In this document: positions 401 through 8,324 of the stretch, piece after piece
How positions within the stretch are numbered: position 1 is the stretch's first letter
Layout: each line of letters begins with the position of its first letter
Source of the DNA: a virus
Lineage: Duplodnaviria > Heunggongvirae > Uroviricota > Caudoviricetes
Virus record (IMG/VR): IMGVR_UViG_2690316109_000013
Coordinates: 1-10,685 of that record
DNA length: 10,685 nt
Reading direction: 5' to 3' (one strand)
Notes under the pieces: model-generated
Database searches by the model: none
Seen by the model: the letters and a program-made list of their open reading frames with translations, nothing else
Told to the model about the DNA's origin: nothing
Program-made: the position numbers and the translations under genes

Positions 401-1064
401 ATTTTATTTAATAGCTCCCGTTCGTGTTTTCTCTTGTTATGACACCAATTTCAAAACAACCTTCAGACGTATTAACGTTTGGTAATAACGTTTCCATTAT
501 CGCGTCCTCAACAATGAATTTTGTGATGCGGTGCCTGGTGCCTCCAGGTGACGTTAACCAGTTAACAATTAACGCCGGATACAGAGAATCCACCCATAAC
601 ACTGTTTTTGGTTTTAACTGTTCCGCGTGCGCTCAGCCGCATTCACCGCATCACAAAATTCACTTTAAAAACGGCGGCAGAGCAGTCACGGAGTAAAACT
701 GATACCGCCAAACGTCACCAGAAAATTGATAACAGAGGGCGTTGCAGCGGGGTTGTCGCTTAAGCGTATGGTCAACCTGACAACCCGGTGTCCTCAACGG
801 GGAAGGAATAACCCCGCCATACTTACCGCCGCGCCATTTCGCGGAGTGCCACAACCGGAAGCGCACGGTCGACGAAAATTTAACGACAGGCTATCTATGA
901 ACCAGCTACCTCGCCGTGCGCTTTCGCGTTATGGTCTGACTTTTCATGGAAATATCCTTTCAGTAAACTGTCAGTGCCGGATGCTCACCCGTGTCCGGCG
1001 CACGCACTCCACCTCACCCGTGGAGAACTCCTTAATTACCAACCTTAGCTTCGTTGGTTAGCTA

Positions 1065-1916: not shown

Positions 1917-2393
1917 TTAAGTTCCTGTCTTGGTGATGTTCTGGCTTTTCCGTTTTGATTCTTGATTTTTCAGATAGTTAGCTACCTTCATTTCCATTGC
2001 GGCAATGTAGGCGCGAACGTCATGATCAACCCAACTAGGCTCCGTAGCATTTCCAGATAAGAGGAAAGCCACAATTGCTCTTTTTTCATCAGAGGCGGCT
2101 TGATAAAGGCTGTTTATGTCTAAAAGTTCACTTTTTGTATCTGAAGTGGATGGGGTTGGTATGGGGTATTCGTTAAGCCCCCAATGCTCTGGACCAACCA
2201 CATCAGAAAAGAAACGCCATAGTTCTGGAAGTTTGTCTTTACTTATCGAACCTTTCTTAATCCAGTCATGGATTGATGGTGGTTGGACTTTGAAATGACG
2301 TGCGATTTCCGCCTTTGATTTGACGGCTCCTGATGCAATTTTTTTGTTAATGGCCTGCTCTATCGCTCGGCCTAAGTCTTTACCACTAAGCAT
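1917..2393 (-). CDS. racR: Prophage repressor, RacR-like HTH protein (158 aa)
   Basis: ORF track entry; AGGAGA 10 nt upstream of the ATG at 2393; HTH-like segment KSKAEIARHFKVQPPSIHDWIKKGS; transcribed divergently from a Cro-like gene and flanked by operator repeats. Length and position match my recollection of RacR in the Rac prophage. Confidence 0.65.
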   Translation of the reverse strand: MLSGKDLGRAIEQAINKKIASGAVKSKAEIARHFKVQPPSIHDWIKKGSISKDKLPELWRFFSDVVGPEHWGLNEYPIPTPSTSDTKSELLDINSLYQAASDEKRAIVAFLLSGNATEPSWVDHDVRAYIAAMEMKVANYLKNQESKRKSQNITKTGT

Positions 2394-2421
2394 TGCTTAA
2401 TAGTCTCCTATGCGCATCGCG

Positions 2422-2488
2422 TTAGGCAATCCCTACTCTCGATGTGTTAGGTATAGCCTATTGACAATTGCATTAGGCTAAGCCTAAT
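2422..2488. promoter_or_regulatory. OR-like operator cluster
   Basis: ttaggc (2422-2427), ttaggtatagcctattgacaa (2447-2467) and the 7-3-7 palindrome ATTAGGCtaaGCCTAAT (2472-2488), which overlaps the PR-like spacer and -10. Confidence 0.5.
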
Positions 2489-2490
2489 AT
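2461..2490 (+). promoter_or_regulatory. PR-like sigma70 promoter driving the rightward early operon
   Basis: TTGACA (2461-2466), 18-bp spacer, TAATAT (2485-2490); followed by GGAG (2505-2508) and the ATG at 2518. Confidence 0.55.
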
Positions 2491-2517
2491 TGTTGCGTGT
2501 TTTTTGGAGTTCATTCG

Positions 2518-2841
2518 ATGAAAAAAGATAACTATTCATTCAAACGAGCTTGTGCTGTTGTCGGTGGGCAATCAGCAATGGCTAGGCTTTTAGGTGTATC
2601 TCCTCCAAGCGTAAATCAATGGATCAAAGGTGTACGTCAGTTGCCTGCTGAGAGATGTCCTGCGATTGAACGAGCAACAAAAGGTGGTGTCCTGTGTGAA
2701 GAACTTCGTCCTGATGTTGATTGGACATACTTACGACGCTCGTCATGTTATTCGCAGAATATGTCGATGAAGCAACCAAATGACGAAAACGATCATACCC
2801 GAAGCATCAAGAGGCAAATGATTCATGAAAATCAAACATGA
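2518..2841 (+). CDS. ydaS: Cro/CI-type HTH DNA-binding protein, YdaS-like (107 aa from the ATG at 2518)
   Basis: HTH motif QSAMARLLGVSPPSVNQWIKGVRQ; first gene after the PR-like promoter; GGAG 9 nt upstream. The track ORF begins at 2497, but 2518 has the better RBS. Confidence 0.7.
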   Translation: MKKDNYSFKRACAVVGGQSAMARLLGVSPPSVNQWIKGVRQLPAERCPAIERATKGGVLCEELRPDVDWTYLRRSSCYSQNMSMKQPNDENDHTRSIKRQMIHENQT

Positions 2842-3250
2842 GCACATCCGCATGGCGATGAATGCTTGGGCATACCCTGATGGTGAGAAAGTTCCTGCAG
2901 CTGAAATAGCCCGGACTTATTTCGAACTGGGGATGACGTTCCCTGAACTGTACGACGACAGCCATCCGGAAGCCCTGGCCCGTAATACACAGAAAATTTT
3001 CCGTTGGCTGGATAAAGACACCCCTGATGCTGTTGAAAAAATTCAGGCTCTGTTACCGGCGATCGAAAAGGCAATGCCGCCTCTGCTGGTGGCCCGTATG
3101 CGCAGTCACAGCTCTGAGTATTACCGGGAGATTGTCGAACGGCGGGATCGGCTGGTGAAGGATGTCGACGATTTTGTTGCGTCAGCGGTTGTTTTGTATG
3201 ACCAGATGAATCGCGGCGGCCCGGCAGGGAATGCTGTGGTGATGCACTAA
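2825..3250 (+). CDS. ydaT: YdaT-like protein (141 aa), reported as a phage CII-like regulator
   Basis: ORF track entry; start overlaps the YdaS-like stop by 17 nt; GAGG 10 nt upstream; sequence and length match my recollection of Rac YdaT. Confidence 0.7.
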   Translation: MKIKHEHIRMAMNAWAYPDGEKVPAAEIARTYFELGMTFPELYDDSHPEALARNTQKIFRWLDKDTPDAVEKIQALLPAIEKAMPPLLVARMRSHSSEYYREIVERRDRLVKDVDDFVASAVVLYDQMNRGGPAGNAVVMH

Positions 3251-3272
3251 AAGCACGGTGTTCGGGGGTTTT

Positions 3273-4235
3273 ATGAGCAGCAAGCTTCATGGTCTTGTCT
3301 GGGAAGGGTGCGCCTTCACCGGCATGATCTTATCCAGGGTGGCGGTTATGGCCCGTCTTGCAGACTACAGCAATGACGAGGGTGTGTCATGGCCTGCCAT
3401 TGAAACTATCCGGCGTCAGATCGGTGCAAGAAGTGAATCCACAGTGAAATCGGCTATTGCAGAACTGGCGAAAGAGGGCTGGCTGACGAAGGAAGAGCGT
3501 AAGGTCGGTGGGCGTAATGTAAGCAATATCTATCGGCTTAATGTGGAAAAACTCGAAGCAGCTGCGGCGGCGGCGCGTGAGTCATATAAACCGAAAAGAA
3601 AAATTAGCCCGGCAAAAAATGACCCGTTAACAGTTGACCCGTCAAATATTGACCCCTCAACGGTTGACCCGTCAAATTTTGATGGATCAACTGTTGATAA
3701 AAAACTGCCGATTAGGGGGGCGATGATTGACCCCGATCCGTCAGTATTAAAACCTGAACCGTCAGATAAAAGATCTTCTTGTCCGGACGCTTCGCAACCG
3801 GACCCGCAGACGGCTGAACAGGATTTTTTAACCCGACACCCTGACGCGGTTGTGTTCAGTGCGAAAAAACGCCAGTGGGGAAGTCAGGAAGATTTGGTGT
3901 GCGCACAGTGGATCTGGGGACGAATCGTGAGTCTTTACGAGCAGGCGGCCAGCTATGATGGCGAGATCACTAGACCGAAAGAACCCAACTGGACAGCATG
4001 GGCCAATGACGTTCGCACAATGCGGATGCTGGATGGCAGAACTCACAGACAAATTTGTGAAATGTTTGGGCGTCTCCAGCGGGATTCGTTCTGGGTAAAA
4101 AACATCATGAGTCCGGCAAAACTCCGGGAAAAATGGGATGAACTGGTTATCCGCCTGGGGCGTTCGCCTGCGCAGCGTTGCGTGAATCACATTTCTGAAC
4201 CGGACACTGAAATACCGCCGGGATTCAGGGGGTGA
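3273..4235 (+). CDS. ydaU: Replication initiation protein, lambda O-like / YdaU-like, with N-terminal HTH domain and a repetitive linker
   Basis: ORF track entry 3258-4235 (GTG start); I prefer the in-frame ATG at 3273 (MSSKLHGL). N-terminal winged-helix-like segment; linker reads DPSNIDPSTVDPSNFDGSTVD, encoded by iteron-like DNA repeats; followed by an overlapping DnaC-like gene. Confidence 0.7.
   Translation: MSSKLHGLVWEGCAFTGMILSRVAVMARLADYSNDEGVSWPAIETIRRQIGARSESTVKSAIAELAKEGWLTKEERKVGGRNVSNIYRLNVEKLEAAAAAARESYKPKRKISPAKNDPLTVDPSNIDPSTVDPSNFDGSTVDKKLPIRGAMIDPDPSVLKPEPSDKRSSCPDASQPDPQTAEQDFLTRHPDAVVFSAKKRQWGSQEDLVCAQWIWGRIVSLYEQAASYDGEITRPKEPNWTAWANDVRTMRMLDGRTHRQICEMFGRLQRDSFWVKNIMSPAKLREKWDELVIRLGRSPAQRCVNHISEPDTEIPPGFRG
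3621..3770. repeat. Iteron-like direct and inverted repeats inside the O-like gene; putative prophage replication origin
   Basis: Exact 14-bp copies of ttgacccgtcaaat at 3634-3647 and 3664-3677 (core palindrome TTGACccGTCAA), variant attgacccctcaa (3648-3660), palindrome ttgatggatcaa (3679-3690), further ccgtcag repeats (3725-3767), with A/T-rich DNA alongside. Confidence 0.45.
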
Positions 4236-4241
4236 CGTGTC

Positions 4242-4988
4242 ATGAAAAACATTGCGGCAGTTGGGGTTCTTGAACGTATTCGCAGACTTGCACCACAGGG
4301 GTCGGTTCCACCGTACCGGACGGTGGAGGAGTGGCGGGAATGGCAACTTGCTGAAGGACGAAAACGCAGCGAGGAGATTAACCGCCAGAATCGCCAGTTG
4401 CGGGTGGAAAAAATCCTGAATCGTTCGGGCATCCAGCCTCTGCACAGCAAATGCTCGTTTGCAAATTATCAGGTGCAGAACGACGGGCAAAAATACGCGC
4501 TGAGCCAGGCCAAATCCATAGCTGACGAACTGATGACCGGGTGCACGAATTTTGTGTTCAGCGGTAAAACCGGCACCGGGAAAAATCACCTTGCAGCGGC
4601 GATGGGCAACCGGCTGATGGTGAAGGGGCGCAGCGTGATTATCGTCACCGTGTCTGACGTCATGAGCGTGTTGCATGACAGCTACGACAACGGCAAATCC
4701 GGGGAAAAATTTTTACAGGAGCTTTGCGGGGTTGATTTGCTGGTCCTGGATGAAATAGGCGTTCAGCGGGAGACGAAAAACGAGCAGGTGGTATTGCACC
4801 AGATAATTGATCGCCGGACAGCATCACTGTGCAGTGTCGGGATGTTAACAAACCTGAATCATGCCGCAATGAGTACGCTTCTTGGTGAGAGGATTATGGA
4901 CCGCATGACCATGAACGGTGGTCGATGGGTGACGTTTAACTGGGATAGCTGGCGTCCAAATGTCAGCAATATGAGGGTTGTGAAGTAA
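4242..4988 (+). CDS. ydaV: DnaC-like AAA+ helicase loader, YdaV-like (248 aa)
   Basis: Walker A GKTGTGKNHLAAA (the GKN form that I recall from E. coli DnaC), Walker B LLVLDEIG, and a C-terminal LGERIMDRM...FNWDSWR segment resembling DnaC; AGGGGG RBS 10 nt upstream; positioned directly after the initiator gene. Confidence 0.8.
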   Translation: MKNIAAVGVLERIRRLAPQGSVPPYRTVEEWREWQLAEGRKRSEEINRQNRQLRVEKILNRSGIQPLHSKCSFANYQVQNDGQKYALSQAKSIADELMTGCTNFVFSGKTGTGKNHLAAAMGNRLMVKGRSVIIVTVSDVMSVLHDSYDNGKSGEKFLQELCGVDLLVLDEIGVQRETKNEQVVLHQIIDRRTASLCSVGMLTNLNHAAMSTLLGERIMDRMTMNGGRWVTFNWDSWRPNVSNMRVVK

Positions 4989-7021: not shown

Positions 7022-7091
7022 TTTTATGGATCACCTTTCTGATTGATTTCATATTGGCGAGGTGACGTGAGTTAAGTAGAATTGCTGCGGG

Positions 7092-7116
7092 TGCCTGAGG
7101 CTGTCTGCCTCAGGCA
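7092..7116 (+). other. Perfect 9-bp stem-loop in the leader upstream of the methyltransferase gene
   Basis: tgcctgagg (7092-7100), 7-nt loop, cctcaggca (7108-7116); no adjacent T-tract on either strand. A weak promoter candidate TTGGCG-17-TAGAAT (7054-7082) lies just upstream. Confidence 0.3.
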
Positions 7117-7199
7117 TGAACACCAAAAGGCAGATAGAGAAAGCCCCAGTTAACATTACGCGTCCTGTAAGACGCTCAACATTAATCTGAGGCATATGG

Positions 7200-8324
7200 A
7201 TGCGGATGAAAGAATTAAATAAATTCAGAGTGATAGACCTCTTTTGTGGGGCAGGTGGATTATCTTATGGTTTTCTTCATGGAGAGATGTCTGACTACTT
7301 TGAAAGTATCCTTGCTATTGATAATAATGCTGCAGCTATAAATACCTACAATGCCAATTTTGGTTTGCATGGAGTTCAGGCAAATATTGAGGAGTGGGCA
7401 TCCAGCAATACTGTTCCTGAGGCTGATGTGGTCATAGGTGGCCCCCCGTGTCAGGGATTCAGTTTATTGAATAAGAATCGTTATGGTGATCACCGAAGAG
7501 CATTGTGGGAGCCTTATATGGATGTCATTGAGCGTTCAAGGGCTTGTATGTTCGTCATGGAAAATGTCCCCGGATTGCTGATAAGCGATGAGTTTGCGGA
7601 CATTACGTTTAGAGCGAAATCCATGGGCTTTATTCTGCTTAATCCAATGGTGTTGAATACTGCTGACTATGGAGTACCTCAGACAAGAAAACGAACGATA
7701 GCAATCGGTATCAAACGAGAACTCTTCGATGTGCATAGTATTCCGGCGTTCCCGCCAGCACCAACGCATCGTTCCCCTGATAAGGATGTCGCTTTGCCTG
7801 AATGGGTCTGTACGCGTGATGCAATTGGTGACTTACCTGCTCCTGTTGGAACTGATATTCGTAATGAACTTCCTCCGCTGAACTTACATTTTGGGCGTAA
7901 TCCCACACCTGTTTCTCTGGAGCGATATAAAGCGGTTCCACCAGGAGGTAACCGTTTCGATTTACAGAAAAAAAGACCTGATATAACCCCGGCGTGCTGG
8001 CTAAAAAAGAAATCTGGAGGGACCGATTTGTTTGGACGTCTGTGGTGGGACAGACCTTCAGTAACGATTCGTACTGAGTTTTTCAAACCGGAGAAAGGGC
8101 GATATTTACATCCGGAAGAGGATCGGCCAATAACTCATCGTGAGGCAGCGAGATTAATGTCTTTTCCTGATAATTTCATTTTTACCGGTTCAAAAACTGA
8201 GATTGCAAAGCAGATCGGGAATGCTGTTCCACCGCTATTTGCGGCAAAAATCGCACAATATGTGTATGGAGTTTTGCAGGGACGGTATAAGAATAACATC
8301 AGTAAGAATAGTCAAGCAGCCTGA
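7200..8324 (+). CDS. DNA (cytosine-5)-methyltransferase, type II R-M modification subunit (374 aa)
   Basis: C5-MTase motifs: FCGAGGLSYGF (motif I, AdoMet binding), GGPPCQGFS (motif IV, catalytic Cys), VMENVPGL (ENV), QTRKR and C-terminal GNAVPP. TGAGG RBS 7 nt upstream of the ATG at 7200. Confidence 0.9.
   Translation: MRMKELNKFRVIDLFCGAGGLSYGFLHGEMSDYFESILAIDNNAAAINTYNANFGLHGVQANIEEWASSNTVPEADVVIGGPPCQGFSLLNKNRYGDHRRALWEPYMDVIERSRACMFVMENVPGLLISDEFADITFRAKSMGFILLNPMVLNTADYGVPQTRKRTIAIGIKRELFDVHSIPAFPPAPTHRSPDKDVALPEWVCTRDAIGDLPAPVGTDIRNELPPLNLHFGRNPTPVSLERYKAVPPGGNRFDLQKKRPDITPACWLKKKSGGTDLFGRLWWDRPSVTIRTEFFKPEKGRYLHPEEDRPITHREAARLMSFPDNFIFTGSKTEIAKQIGNAVPPLFAAKIAQYVYGVLQGRYKNNISKNSQAA

Follow-up and report, generated by a model that had tools for sequence, protein, structure and literature searches.

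In phage lambda, the replication origin is a set of four 18–19-bp iterons in gene O, after which comes an A/T-rich region (NC_001416 annotation; PMC7466680; PMC6022878). The number of iterons is four in lambda and six in Stx phages; in 933W and P27 the six lambda-type iterons also lie in O, and synonymous mutations within them abolish plasmid replication (PMC7466680). oriJ of the Rac prophage, with ydaU/ydaV, is cited as a functional origin in E. coli K-12 (PMC3945230, PMC11014345). A full-text literature search by motif string and keywords found no paper describing the repeats or the origin presented here, with the motif string leading to unrelated papers only. An origin inside an initiator gene is an already known design, and in the HTH_36-type family of initiators it seems to be undescribed.

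The gene at 3273–4235 (+) of the 10,685-nt (10.7-kb) stretch of DNA analyzed here (the window) is carried by a lambdoid prophage of the Rac type in E. coli. Its product is a 320-aa replication initiator made up of a winged-helix N-domain, a disordered linker, a lambda-O-like C-domain and a DnaT-like tail. The RefSeq name is only 'helix-turn-helix domain-containing protein', but the protein matches PHROG 391 ('replication initiation O-like') over its full length (residues 1–320 on profile positions 1–298, E 3e-115), and it has 912 homologues at E <= 1e-10; homologues occur in many Enterobacterales. The presumed iteron reader is the winged-helix DNA-binding N-domain (aa 1–104; 3273–3584, +), assigned from the Pfam HTH_36 match (residues 25–71) and the predicted structure, which has the secondary structure order H-H-H-H-E-E-H at pLDDT 73–89. 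Foldseek returned only generic matches to the winged-helix folds of MarR, PadR, ArsR and the DnaD N-domain, with nothing at an E-value below 1e-3. AlphaFold predicted two folded domains (1–104 and 180–297), and linker residues 110–179 had a pLDDT of about 32.

The segment homologous to the C-terminal half of lambda O (aa 153–300; 3729–4172, +) aligned by BLASTP with lambda O residues 145–277, showing 35% identity over 148 residues (E 3e-26). The C-terminal tail, ...SEPDTEIPPGFRG (4176–4232, +), is common to DnaT and Rac YdaU; it corresponds to positions 159–179 of 179 of NCBIfam DnaT, has PDB matches 2ru8, 6aep and 9zbt, and is 68% identical to Rac YdaU residues 267–285. It may be a docking peptide for the DnaC-type loader; the preprimosome paper gives no binding partner for the extreme C-terminus of DnaT. 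Directly after the initiator is the gene for a DnaC-like helicase loader (4242–4988, +), supported by full-length NCBIfam PRK12377 (506 bits) and DnaC equivalog (299 bits) matches, IstB_IS21/AAA and PHROG 50. The PHROG match, the lambda-O-like C-domain and the adjacent loader gene together bear out the description of the gene as O-like in the first-pass annotation. The sole promoter-like match in 2300–4400 is a pR-like sigma-70 promoter (TTGACA-18-TAATAT, 10/12 consensus matches) at 2461–2490 (+), upstream of the cro-like ydaS. There is no terminator-like site between this candidate promoter and the initiator gene, and, judged from the sequence, it is the likely source of transcription reading through the origin.

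Two exact copies of the 14-mer TTGACCCGTCAAAT, as already claimed in the first-pass annotation, are found at 3634–3647 and 3664–3677, with no further copy in the window and none in any of 200 dinucleotide-preserving shuffles. When up to two mismatches are allowed, the 12-mer TTGACCCGTCAA occurs at five positions (3619, 3634, 3649, 3664 and 3679) spaced by exactly 15 bp, and at none in the window outside these sites. The seven strand-hits observed compare with 0.93 expected, and 0/200 shuffles reach seven. Tandem Repeats Finder reported both a 15-bp period (5 copies) and a 30-bp period (2.5–3 copies, 80–84% matches) at 3599–3697. The array is composed of five head-to-tail 15-bp units at 3618–3692, each a small palindrome of the form TTGAC-NN-GTCAA (TTGAC-CC-GTCAA), and all units are given here on the + strand. 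Unit 1 (AATGACCCGTTAACA, 3618–3632) is degenerate, with two mismatches to TTGACCCGTCAA at 3619, and is absent from alleles L003 and L092. Units 2 and 4 (both GTTGACCCGTCAAAT, 3633–3647 and 3663–3677) contain the first and second exact 14-mer copies, unit 3 (ATTGACCCCTCAACG, 3648–3662) has one mismatch, and unit 5 (TTTGATGGATCAACT, 3678–3692) retains the palindrome as TTGAT-GG-ATCAA and includes a GATC. The array is closed by a half unit (GTTGATAAAAAACTG, 3693–3707, +) that is in register at +15 and has the left half-site only; it overlaps a 1-mismatch DnaA-box-like 9-mer at 3692–3700 (−), which is not above chance. Degenerate copies (GAyCCGTCAG) follow at 3735–3744 and 3756–3765, and the palindromic units bear out the short palindromes mentioned previously. 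The array units are in frame and encode NDPLT-VDPSN-IDPST-VDPSN-FDGST, and the DPSN(I/F)D repeat claimed for the protein is therefore real. It occupies residues 116–141, placing the repeats, as had been stated, in the linker-coding part of the gene, within the predicted disordered segment (AlphaFold, 110–179) between the two folded domains.

Both flanks of the array are richer in A+T than the gene (48%). Upstream is an A-tract-rich stretch (ATATAAACCGAAAAGAAAAATTAGCCCGGCAAAAA, 3584–3618, +; 69% A+T), a candidate bent or easily melted flank whose 20-bp stability ranks among the lowest ~1% in the window; 3' of the iterons is a moderately A/T-rich segment (3735–3782, +; 62–65% A+T), a candidate unwinding region whose 40-bp stability ranks among the lowest ~4%. 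The adjoining A/T-rich DNA is the least secure element of the first-pass annotation: the enrichment is only moderate, with neither flank being the extreme of the window and both being below the 74% of the lambda stretch. Next to the array lies a G-run and then an imperfect palindrome (GGGGGGCGATGATTGACCCC, 3714–3734, +), read from a comparison of L011–L017 with the window; in these clade relatives the palindrome is perfect (GGGGTCAA-tgg-TTGACCCC).

The palindrome is followed by a family-wide conserved box, GATCCGTCAGTA (3735–3746, +), which combines a Dam site with an iteron-like half-site and includes the nearly invariant GATCCGTCAGTAA box 3' of the array. The consensus over 50 loci is GgngggGATCCGTCAGTAA, with 1.3–2.0 bits at every third codon position, against an average of 0.33 bits for synonymous N-domain sites. 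A second copy of the box (TGAACCGTCAGATAAAAGATCT, 3755–3776, +) has GAAC at 3756–3759 in the window and GATC in relatives, including 80/80 near-identical viral contigs, and a further GATC is found at 3772. The density of GATC is 26.2/kb in the box segment vs 3.2/kb in the remainder of the genes. By eye, the sequence at 3760–3776 (−) resembles the oriC 13-mer GATCTnTTnTTTT (11/13 match), a similarity that was not relied on. DnaA boxes, which would mark a DnaA-dependent origin of the plasmid or oriC type, reach chance level only and were not taken as an origin element: the only matches, at 3542 (−) and 3692 (−), have one mismatch, 46/200 shuffles do as well, and they are not conserved, the one at 3692 not being kept in alleles L003 and L004.

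The number of units is polymorphic, and the comparison of copy number among homologous prophages that had been suggested revealed proteins of 320, 315, 310 and 305 aa, whose alleles differ by 15-bp deletions. Some close alleles (P0015, 305 aa) have only about two units; in such cases few sites may suffice, or the prophages may be defective. A scan of IMG/VR returned 80 nearly identical copies, informative only for allele and copy-number variation. DNA matching the N-domain and repeat part is present in 1,521 of 5,426 complete E. coli genomes. N-domains of the window clade pair with RTTGA...TCAAmT and those of the SfIV clade with TCTGA...TCAAAA, and more distant N-domains (about 50–62% identity) are accompanied by repeats of 30–33 bp. 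A recombination (module) junction was located at 3768, where Megablast identity begins (query position 496). Beyond it the gene shows 86% DNA identity to phages of the mEp460 type, although these have an unrelated N-domain and unrelated repeats. At the protein level the junction lies at ...RPEASQPDPQTAEQDFL, and it leaves the N-domain and repeats together as one module. Since the repeat flanks follow the clade of the adjacent N-domain and are replaced with it, the N-domain is the likely reader of the repeats.

With a period that is a multiple of three, the locus in the window is, taken by itself, compatible with a role for the peptide, in which an Asp/Pro/Ser-rich, flexible pentapeptide linker grew by replication slippage and the DNA repeats are merely its shadow. 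The 15-bp period is then five codons in frame, the region is predicted to be disordered, the number of units shifts by whole units as expected of slippage, and an x-[DE]-x-S-x repeat occurs in all HTH_36-type homologues. This explanation becomes very unlikely when the codons of 209 units are compared, drawn from 49 loci across many genera; their profile is nnT-GAc-nnn-TCA-AAa. Codon 1 ends in T in 87% of units, even though it may encode Ser, Phe, Ile, Val, Pro or Tyr, the Ser of codon 4 is TCA in 88%, and the middle codon is free, its residue being unconstrained. TCA encodes 156/190 (82%) of the array Ser residues that precede K, N or T, compared with 137 of the 908 Ser codons (15%) outside the arrays in the same genes, and the choice depends on position, TCT being used at codon 1 but TCA at codon 4. 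Third positions of the arrays carry 1.25–1.34 bits, whereas conserved codons of the N-domain, taken from the same loci, have randomized synonymous sites (mean 0.33 bits). The equivalent repeats of mEp460 are spaced by 23, 23, 23 and 24 bp and encode no peptide repeat; a period of 23 bp is indivisible by three, which precludes one. Judged by this codon usage, it is as DNA and not as peptide that the repeats have been conserved in homologues from other genera (about 50). A homologue that has kept the protein and lost the DNA repeats, named beforehand as the case that would count against an origin, was not found among those compared.

The same sites could instead bind the initiator for autoregulation, titration or copy control, with replication starting elsewhere in the prophage. 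Iterons of plasmids and of Vibrio chromosome II do act in negative control as well (PMC3401445), and the weak A/T-rich flank would agree with such a function, yet it is an unlikely one for an array that has no second motif cluster in the 10.7-kb window and lies ~350 nt into the gene, >1.1 kb from the sole promoter-like site, which is poor placement for an operator. The conserved, non-coding-type box beside the array suits an origin core better than an operator, and the order of iterons, weaker segment and C-domain coding sequence is that of lambda, where this position is the origin. Binding of the palindromes by a different protein (such as a host factor, a prophage repressor or SeqA/Dam), or a hotspot for recombination at a module boundary that plays no part in replication, would fit with the mosaic junction just past the repeats and with the GATC sites enriched close by. 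This reading is nevertheless highly improbable, given that the repeat flanks track the N-domain clade and were swapped along with the N-domain, and that the cI/cro intergenic region does not carry the motif. A repressor operator was rejected for the latter reason, since neither the operator region nor any other part of the window outside the array has the motif.

The 15-bp repeats are, in our assessment, most probably the iterons of the prophage replication origin, located inside the initiator gene. An origin at this position had been proposed in the first-pass annotation, and the proposal held when tested for the gene as an initiator, the place of the repeats in it, selection on the DNA and co-variation with the N-domain; that the initiator binds the repeats, that the DNA opens and the helicase is recruited there, and that the origin is active are inferred. 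Weighing against this assessment are the moderate A+T content of the flanks, the alleles with only about two units and the loss of a conserved GATC from the allele of the window. Upon derepression, transcription from the pR-like promoter would both produce the initiator and read through the origin. Dimers of the N-terminal winged-helix domain would bind TTGAC-NN-GTCAA, and four or five units at 15-bp spacing would give a complex resembling the lambda 'O-some'. Strain from this complex would open a nearby weaker segment, for which the best candidate is 3735–3782 with its GATCCGTCAGTAA box and the alternative is the upstream A-tract. The lambda-O-like C-domain and DnaT-like tail would then recruit host DnaB via the DnaC-like loader of the prophage. 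The pentapeptide repeat DPS(N/T)(V/I/F) would be mostly a by-product, tolerated because it lies within the disordered linker.

Whether HTH_36-type initiators have an origin design of their own, combining 15-bp in-frame sites, a Dam box and a DnaT-like tail that docks a DnaC-type loader, is a more tentative and rather doubtful matter. On such a design, the strict 15-bp in-frame unit would require a single stretch of DNA to both encode the linker and provide the binding sites, and the GGGGATCCGTCAGTAA Dam box, with a second GATC ~21 bp away, would be the point of unwinding or helicase loading, gated by methylation or SeqA. If true, gating at the Dam box would tie firing of the prophage origin to host replication and methylation state.

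The iterons (3618–3707) and box (3735–3776) provide a concrete candidate origin for a very common, poorly annotated prophage replication module, as prophages with HTH_36-type initiators are present in over a quarter of the complete E. coli genomes and elsewhere in Enterobacterales. The rule known from lambda, that N-domain and iterons form one exchangeable module, extends to unrelated DNA-binding domains on the same O-type C-domain. Possible uses are the annotation of prophage origins, the prediction of replication specificity and incompatibility between co-resident prophages, and mini-replicons; the general understanding of phage replication is unchanged.

Among more distant systems, origins inside initiator genes are found in phages of Gram-positive hosts (SPP1 G38P/oriL and lactococcal phages), and in these phages, as in iteron origins of plasmids, direct repeats within or beside the initiator gene are bound by its product. 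P1 oriR, one of the plasmid iteron origins, has GATC repeats, and the GATC clusters of P1 oriR and oriC make initiation methylation-dependent. The protein families and hosts of the SPP1, lactococcal and P1 systems differ from those of the window, and the likeness is one of general design. The Rac prophage of K-12, suggested earlier for comparison, shares the prophage type and the gene order cI-like, ydaS, ydaT, initiator and DnaC-like loader, and YdaU has both the ...IPPGFRG tail and short mid-gene repeats. The comparison goes no further, because the YdaU N-domain is DUF1376, only the last 19 residues are in common, and its repeats are of the GTTCAAAC type at 33-bp spacing; YdaU is a different initiator and was rejected as a direct homologue.

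The Stx phage origins resemble the candidate origin in that the number of iterons varies among relatives, lengthening the initiator, and in the double use of the DNA for coding and for binding, but they have true lambda-type O proteins and iterons, whereas here the iteron sequence and N-domain family are different. The phiP27 record contains an HTH_36 homologue, while the Stx 'P27' origin paper deals with a lambda-type O and iterons instead. In mEp460-type phages (mEp460, HannyBb and PhiR42_1), the initiator gene has 86% DNA identity over the part coding for the C-terminal half, and its repeats have the same location, with an A/T-rich stretch after them; their N-domain, in contrast, is unrelated and has no Pfam match, and the repeats number five and recur every 23 bp.

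The differences from lambda begin with the N-domain, which is HTH_36 and lacks Phage_rep_O (PF04492); lambda O matches PF04492 at E 6e-36 and the window protein matches HTH_36 only. Comparison of the two N-domains gave nothing by BLASTP and a probability of 0.2% by hhalign, so that for this domain the parallel is functional and not one of descent. The iterons are 12–14 bp long and recur in frame at exactly 15 bp, whereas those of lambda are 18 bp long with 20–24 bp spacing; their sequences are unrelated (TTGACCCGTCAA here vs ATCCCTCAAAACGAGGGA in lambda), the partner is a DnaC-like ATPase and not lambda P, and the 3' flank has 62–65% A+T vs 74%, together with an extra conserved GATC box. The likeness to the lambda origin within O that had been noted is nonetheless close in arrangement: the position of the repeats within the initiator gene is almost identical (nt 347–421 of 963 here, 349–433 of 900 in O), the iterons have internal dyad symmetry and lie between a DNA-binding N-domain and a homologous C-domain, weaker DNA is found 3' of them, and the early rightward operon reads through the repeats.

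Five head-to-tail 15-bp units lie within the initiator gene, where the first-pass annotation had proposed a lambda-like iteron origin from two exact 14-bp repeats accompanied by degenerate copies and short palindromes. The 14-mer TTGACCCGTCAAAT does occur exactly twice (3634 and 3664), and no shuffled window contained a copy. Searches with a 12-mer core (≤2 mismatches) returned five sites within 3619-3679, at exact 15-bp steps, and no match elsewhere in the 10.7 kb; the 7 strand-hits compare with 0.93 expected, and 0/200 shuffles reached 7. Tandem Repeats Finder reported periods of 15 and 30, the 30-bp periodicity being the stronger. Every unit is palindromic (TTGAC-NN-GTCAA), and in frame the array reads NDPLT/VDPSN/IDPST/VDPSN/FDGST, confirming the repeated peptide segment described earlier. 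The adjacent A/T-rich DNA that was also claimed is only partly borne out: A+T is 69% at 3584-3618 and 62-65% at 3735-3782 against 48% for the gene, and in stability the flanks rank in the bottom 1-4% of the window without being its extremes; the equivalent stretch of lambda reaches 74%. A further palindrome, TGACGTGTCA (4233-4242), runs from the stop codon of the initiator into the beginning of the DnaC-like gene; its sequence matches TGA-N4-TCA, an agreement that may be due to chance.

PHROG 391 ('replication initiation O-like') covers the whole initiator protein (E 3e-115). In an AlphaFold model with 20 homologues as input, a winged-helix N-domain (aa 1-104, pLDDT 73-89) is joined by a disordered stretch (aa 110-179, pLDDT about 32) to a helical C-domain (aa 180-297), and a flexible tail follows. 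The repeats encode aa 116-141 and therefore fall in the linker, as the first reading had placed them. A lambda O Phage_rep_O domain was considered for the N-domain and rejected, the Pfam match being HTH_36; its predicted fold, a winged helix as in MarR, PadR or the DnaD N-domain, is generic, and those families bind palindromes as dimers. Residues 153-300 align with lambda O 145-277 at 35% identity (E 3e-26), which indicates clear homology of the C-domains. The last ~20 residues (...SEPDTEIPPGFRG; 4176-4232) resemble the very end of E. coli DnaT; K-12 Rac YdaU (L002 4918-4974), a protein otherwise unrelated to the initiator, ends in a matching tail. In E. coli, dnaT is directly upstream of dnaC in one operon, an order resembling that of initiators upstream of a DnaC-like gene, and this tail may work as a transferable peptide on which DnaC-type loaders dock. 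Taken together, the HTH_36 N-domain, O-homologous C-domain and DnaT-like tail make the protein a domain-shuffled O relative, with a different DNA reader joined to an O-type C-domain and a DnaC-type loader as partner. That partner is not fixed, since several homologous initiator genes (L003 and L004, from E. coli 2022H048 and D217-5; L005 and L006, from phages 689R6 and SfIV) have a YfdN-like gene or DUF977/DUF1627 genes downstream in place of a DnaC-like one; in some elements host DnaC may take the role.

Because 15 bp is also five codons, interpretation depends on whether DNA or protein is conserved. The sample comprised 54 loci, one per species, including Erwinia, Edwardsiella, Morganella, Proteus, Providencia, Yersinia, Gilliamella and others, and several phages (SfIV, phiNP, YeP1 and Kp4866-6). 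In 49 of the 52 initiator genes analysed, 1-10 in-frame units directly follow the N-domain, with the profile nnT-GAc-nnn-TCA-AAa (209 units, 49 loci). Codon 1 ends in T in 87% of units, even though it variously encodes S, F, I, V, P or Y; the Ser at codon 4 is TCA in 88%; and the middle codon is under almost no constraint, encoding P, A, G, T, S, R, V, H and others. Serine before K, N or T is TCA in 156/190 cases within arrays, against 137/908 serine codons elsewhere in these genes, and before D, E or V it is TCT in 60% versus 9%. Third positions of the array carry 1.25-1.34 bits; those of conserved four-fold codons of the N-domain in the same loci, serving as control, are randomised (mean 0.33 bits, maximum 0.88). 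With silent sites saturated and the repeat still fixed as DNA, the codon data show selection on the nucleotide sequence T-GA-N4-TCA-A. They contradict a pure protein linker repeat, as do the mid-gene repeats of phage mEp460, whose 23-bp period cannot encode a repeated peptide.

The repeats also vary with the N-domain. Among HTH_36-type proteins, window-clade N-domains pair with RTTGA...TCAAmT and SfIV-clade ones with TCTGA...TCAAAA, while distant ones (50-62% identity; L055, L047) have instead 30-33-bp repeats around CCTCCAGAATCTGGAGG. This perfect palindrome occurs in these most divergent members at L055 1838-1996 and L047 1846-1968, 30-33 bp apart; SfIV-type loci have a single copy (TTTGACCCGCCAGAATCTGG) between the iterons and a GATC-containing box. 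From window position 3768 on, the gene of phage mEp460 is 86% identical as DNA, giving it the same C-terminal half, but its N-domain is unrelated and without a Pfam match. Its five repeats (L010 1332-1503; spacing 23, 23, 23 and 24 bp) occupy the same place in the gene, are followed by 2.8 copies of a 12-bp A/T-rich tandem repeat, ACAGAGAATACA, and are likely an origin of a different specificity type. YdaU of K-12 Rac has a DUF1376 N-domain and its own mid-gene GTTCAAAC-type repeats, direct and inverted and about 33 bp apart (L002 4472-4578); these are possibly the iterons of oriJ, the known origin of Rac. Reader and repeats are thus swapped jointly, as a single module whose junction lies directly 3' of the repeats. 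Such joint exchange has long been known for lambdoid O/ori modules from comparisons of lambda, 434, phi80 and 82.

Just 3' of the array is the box GgngggGATCCGTCAGTAA, common to 50 loci; a second GATCC(a/g)TCAG, with an A-run, comes ~21 bp further on. As GGGGATCCGTCAGTAA with the downstream second GATC, it is nearly invariant DNA in about 50 loci (L011-L062) of many genera. Its third codon positions carry 1.3-2.0 bits, and its conservation greatly exceeds that at silent sites of the adjoining DNA-binding domain. GATC density is 26.2/kb in this 81-nt segment versus 3.2/kb elsewhere in the genes, and Asp is encoded by GAT followed by C in 99/138 cases, whereas the array prefers GAC. In the window the box and second GATC together span 3735-3776, and 3756-3759 reads GAAC where 80/80 near-identical IMG/VR contigs and most homologues of other genera have GATC; one of the two Dam sites that the family conserves beside the iterons has been lost from this allele. 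This element and the A/T-rich region of lambda flank their iterons on the same side, and the element is the best candidate for an unwinding or loading site, one that may respond to Dam or SeqA.

Many E. coli chromosomes (e.g., ATCC 25922) match the window at 99.9-100% identity; the window represents the early region of a lambdoid prophage of the Rac/CP-933P type. A toxin-antitoxin pair (RelE/ParE-RelB; paaA2-parE2-like) and a leftward repressor-like gene are followed by cro-like ydaS (2497-2841), cII-like ydaT (2825-3250), the initiator gene (3273-4235), the DnaC-like ATPase gene (4242-4988), and DUF1627 and DUF977 genes. CP-933P has the same published layout, its gene after ydaT being named an 'o' homologue (PMC8630535). 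DicF RNA (672-723, minus strand, 72.5 bits) and the sok antitoxin RNA of a hok/sok module (7089-7269, plus strand, 61 bits) were matched in Rfam. Between a pR-like promoter (2461-2490) and the initiator gene, no terminator-like site was found.

Transcription from this promoter would both produce the initiator and cross the origin. Winged-helix dimers would bind the palindromic units, and the 15-bp spacing would set neighbouring dimers on nearly opposite helix faces with every second one roughly in phase, in agreement with the stronger 30-bp periodicity. The complex could then destabilise 3735-3782 or the upstream A-tract, and homology and gene order suggest that the O-type C-domain and DnaT-like tail recruit DnaB via the prophage DnaC-like loader. 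Sites bound by the initiator could serve control only, but the lambda-like layout, the occurrence of the sites in one cluster and the conserved GATC box beside them make this less likely; binding of the repeats by some other factor is unlikely, as they track the initiator N-domain.

Textbook accounts of lambda and its relatives place the origin within the initiator gene and the iterons in its linker, and the assignment of array and box as an origin is unsurprising, though useful for annotation and easily tested. Literature searches found no description of strict 15-bp in-frame TGA-N4-TCA iterons, the GATC box or a link to HTH_36-type initiators, and within the literature that could be searched the iteron family, the conserved box and the link of both to these initiators seem not to have been described. 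The copy-number comparison among homologues proposed in the first-pass annotation gave differences of whole units: close E. coli alleles encode 320, 315, 310 or 305 aa, exactly one 15-bp unit is missing in L003 and the viral contig L092, and a Providencia locus (L045) has about ten. This variation parallels the difference between lambda, with 4 iterons, and Stx phages, with 6 (PMC7466680).
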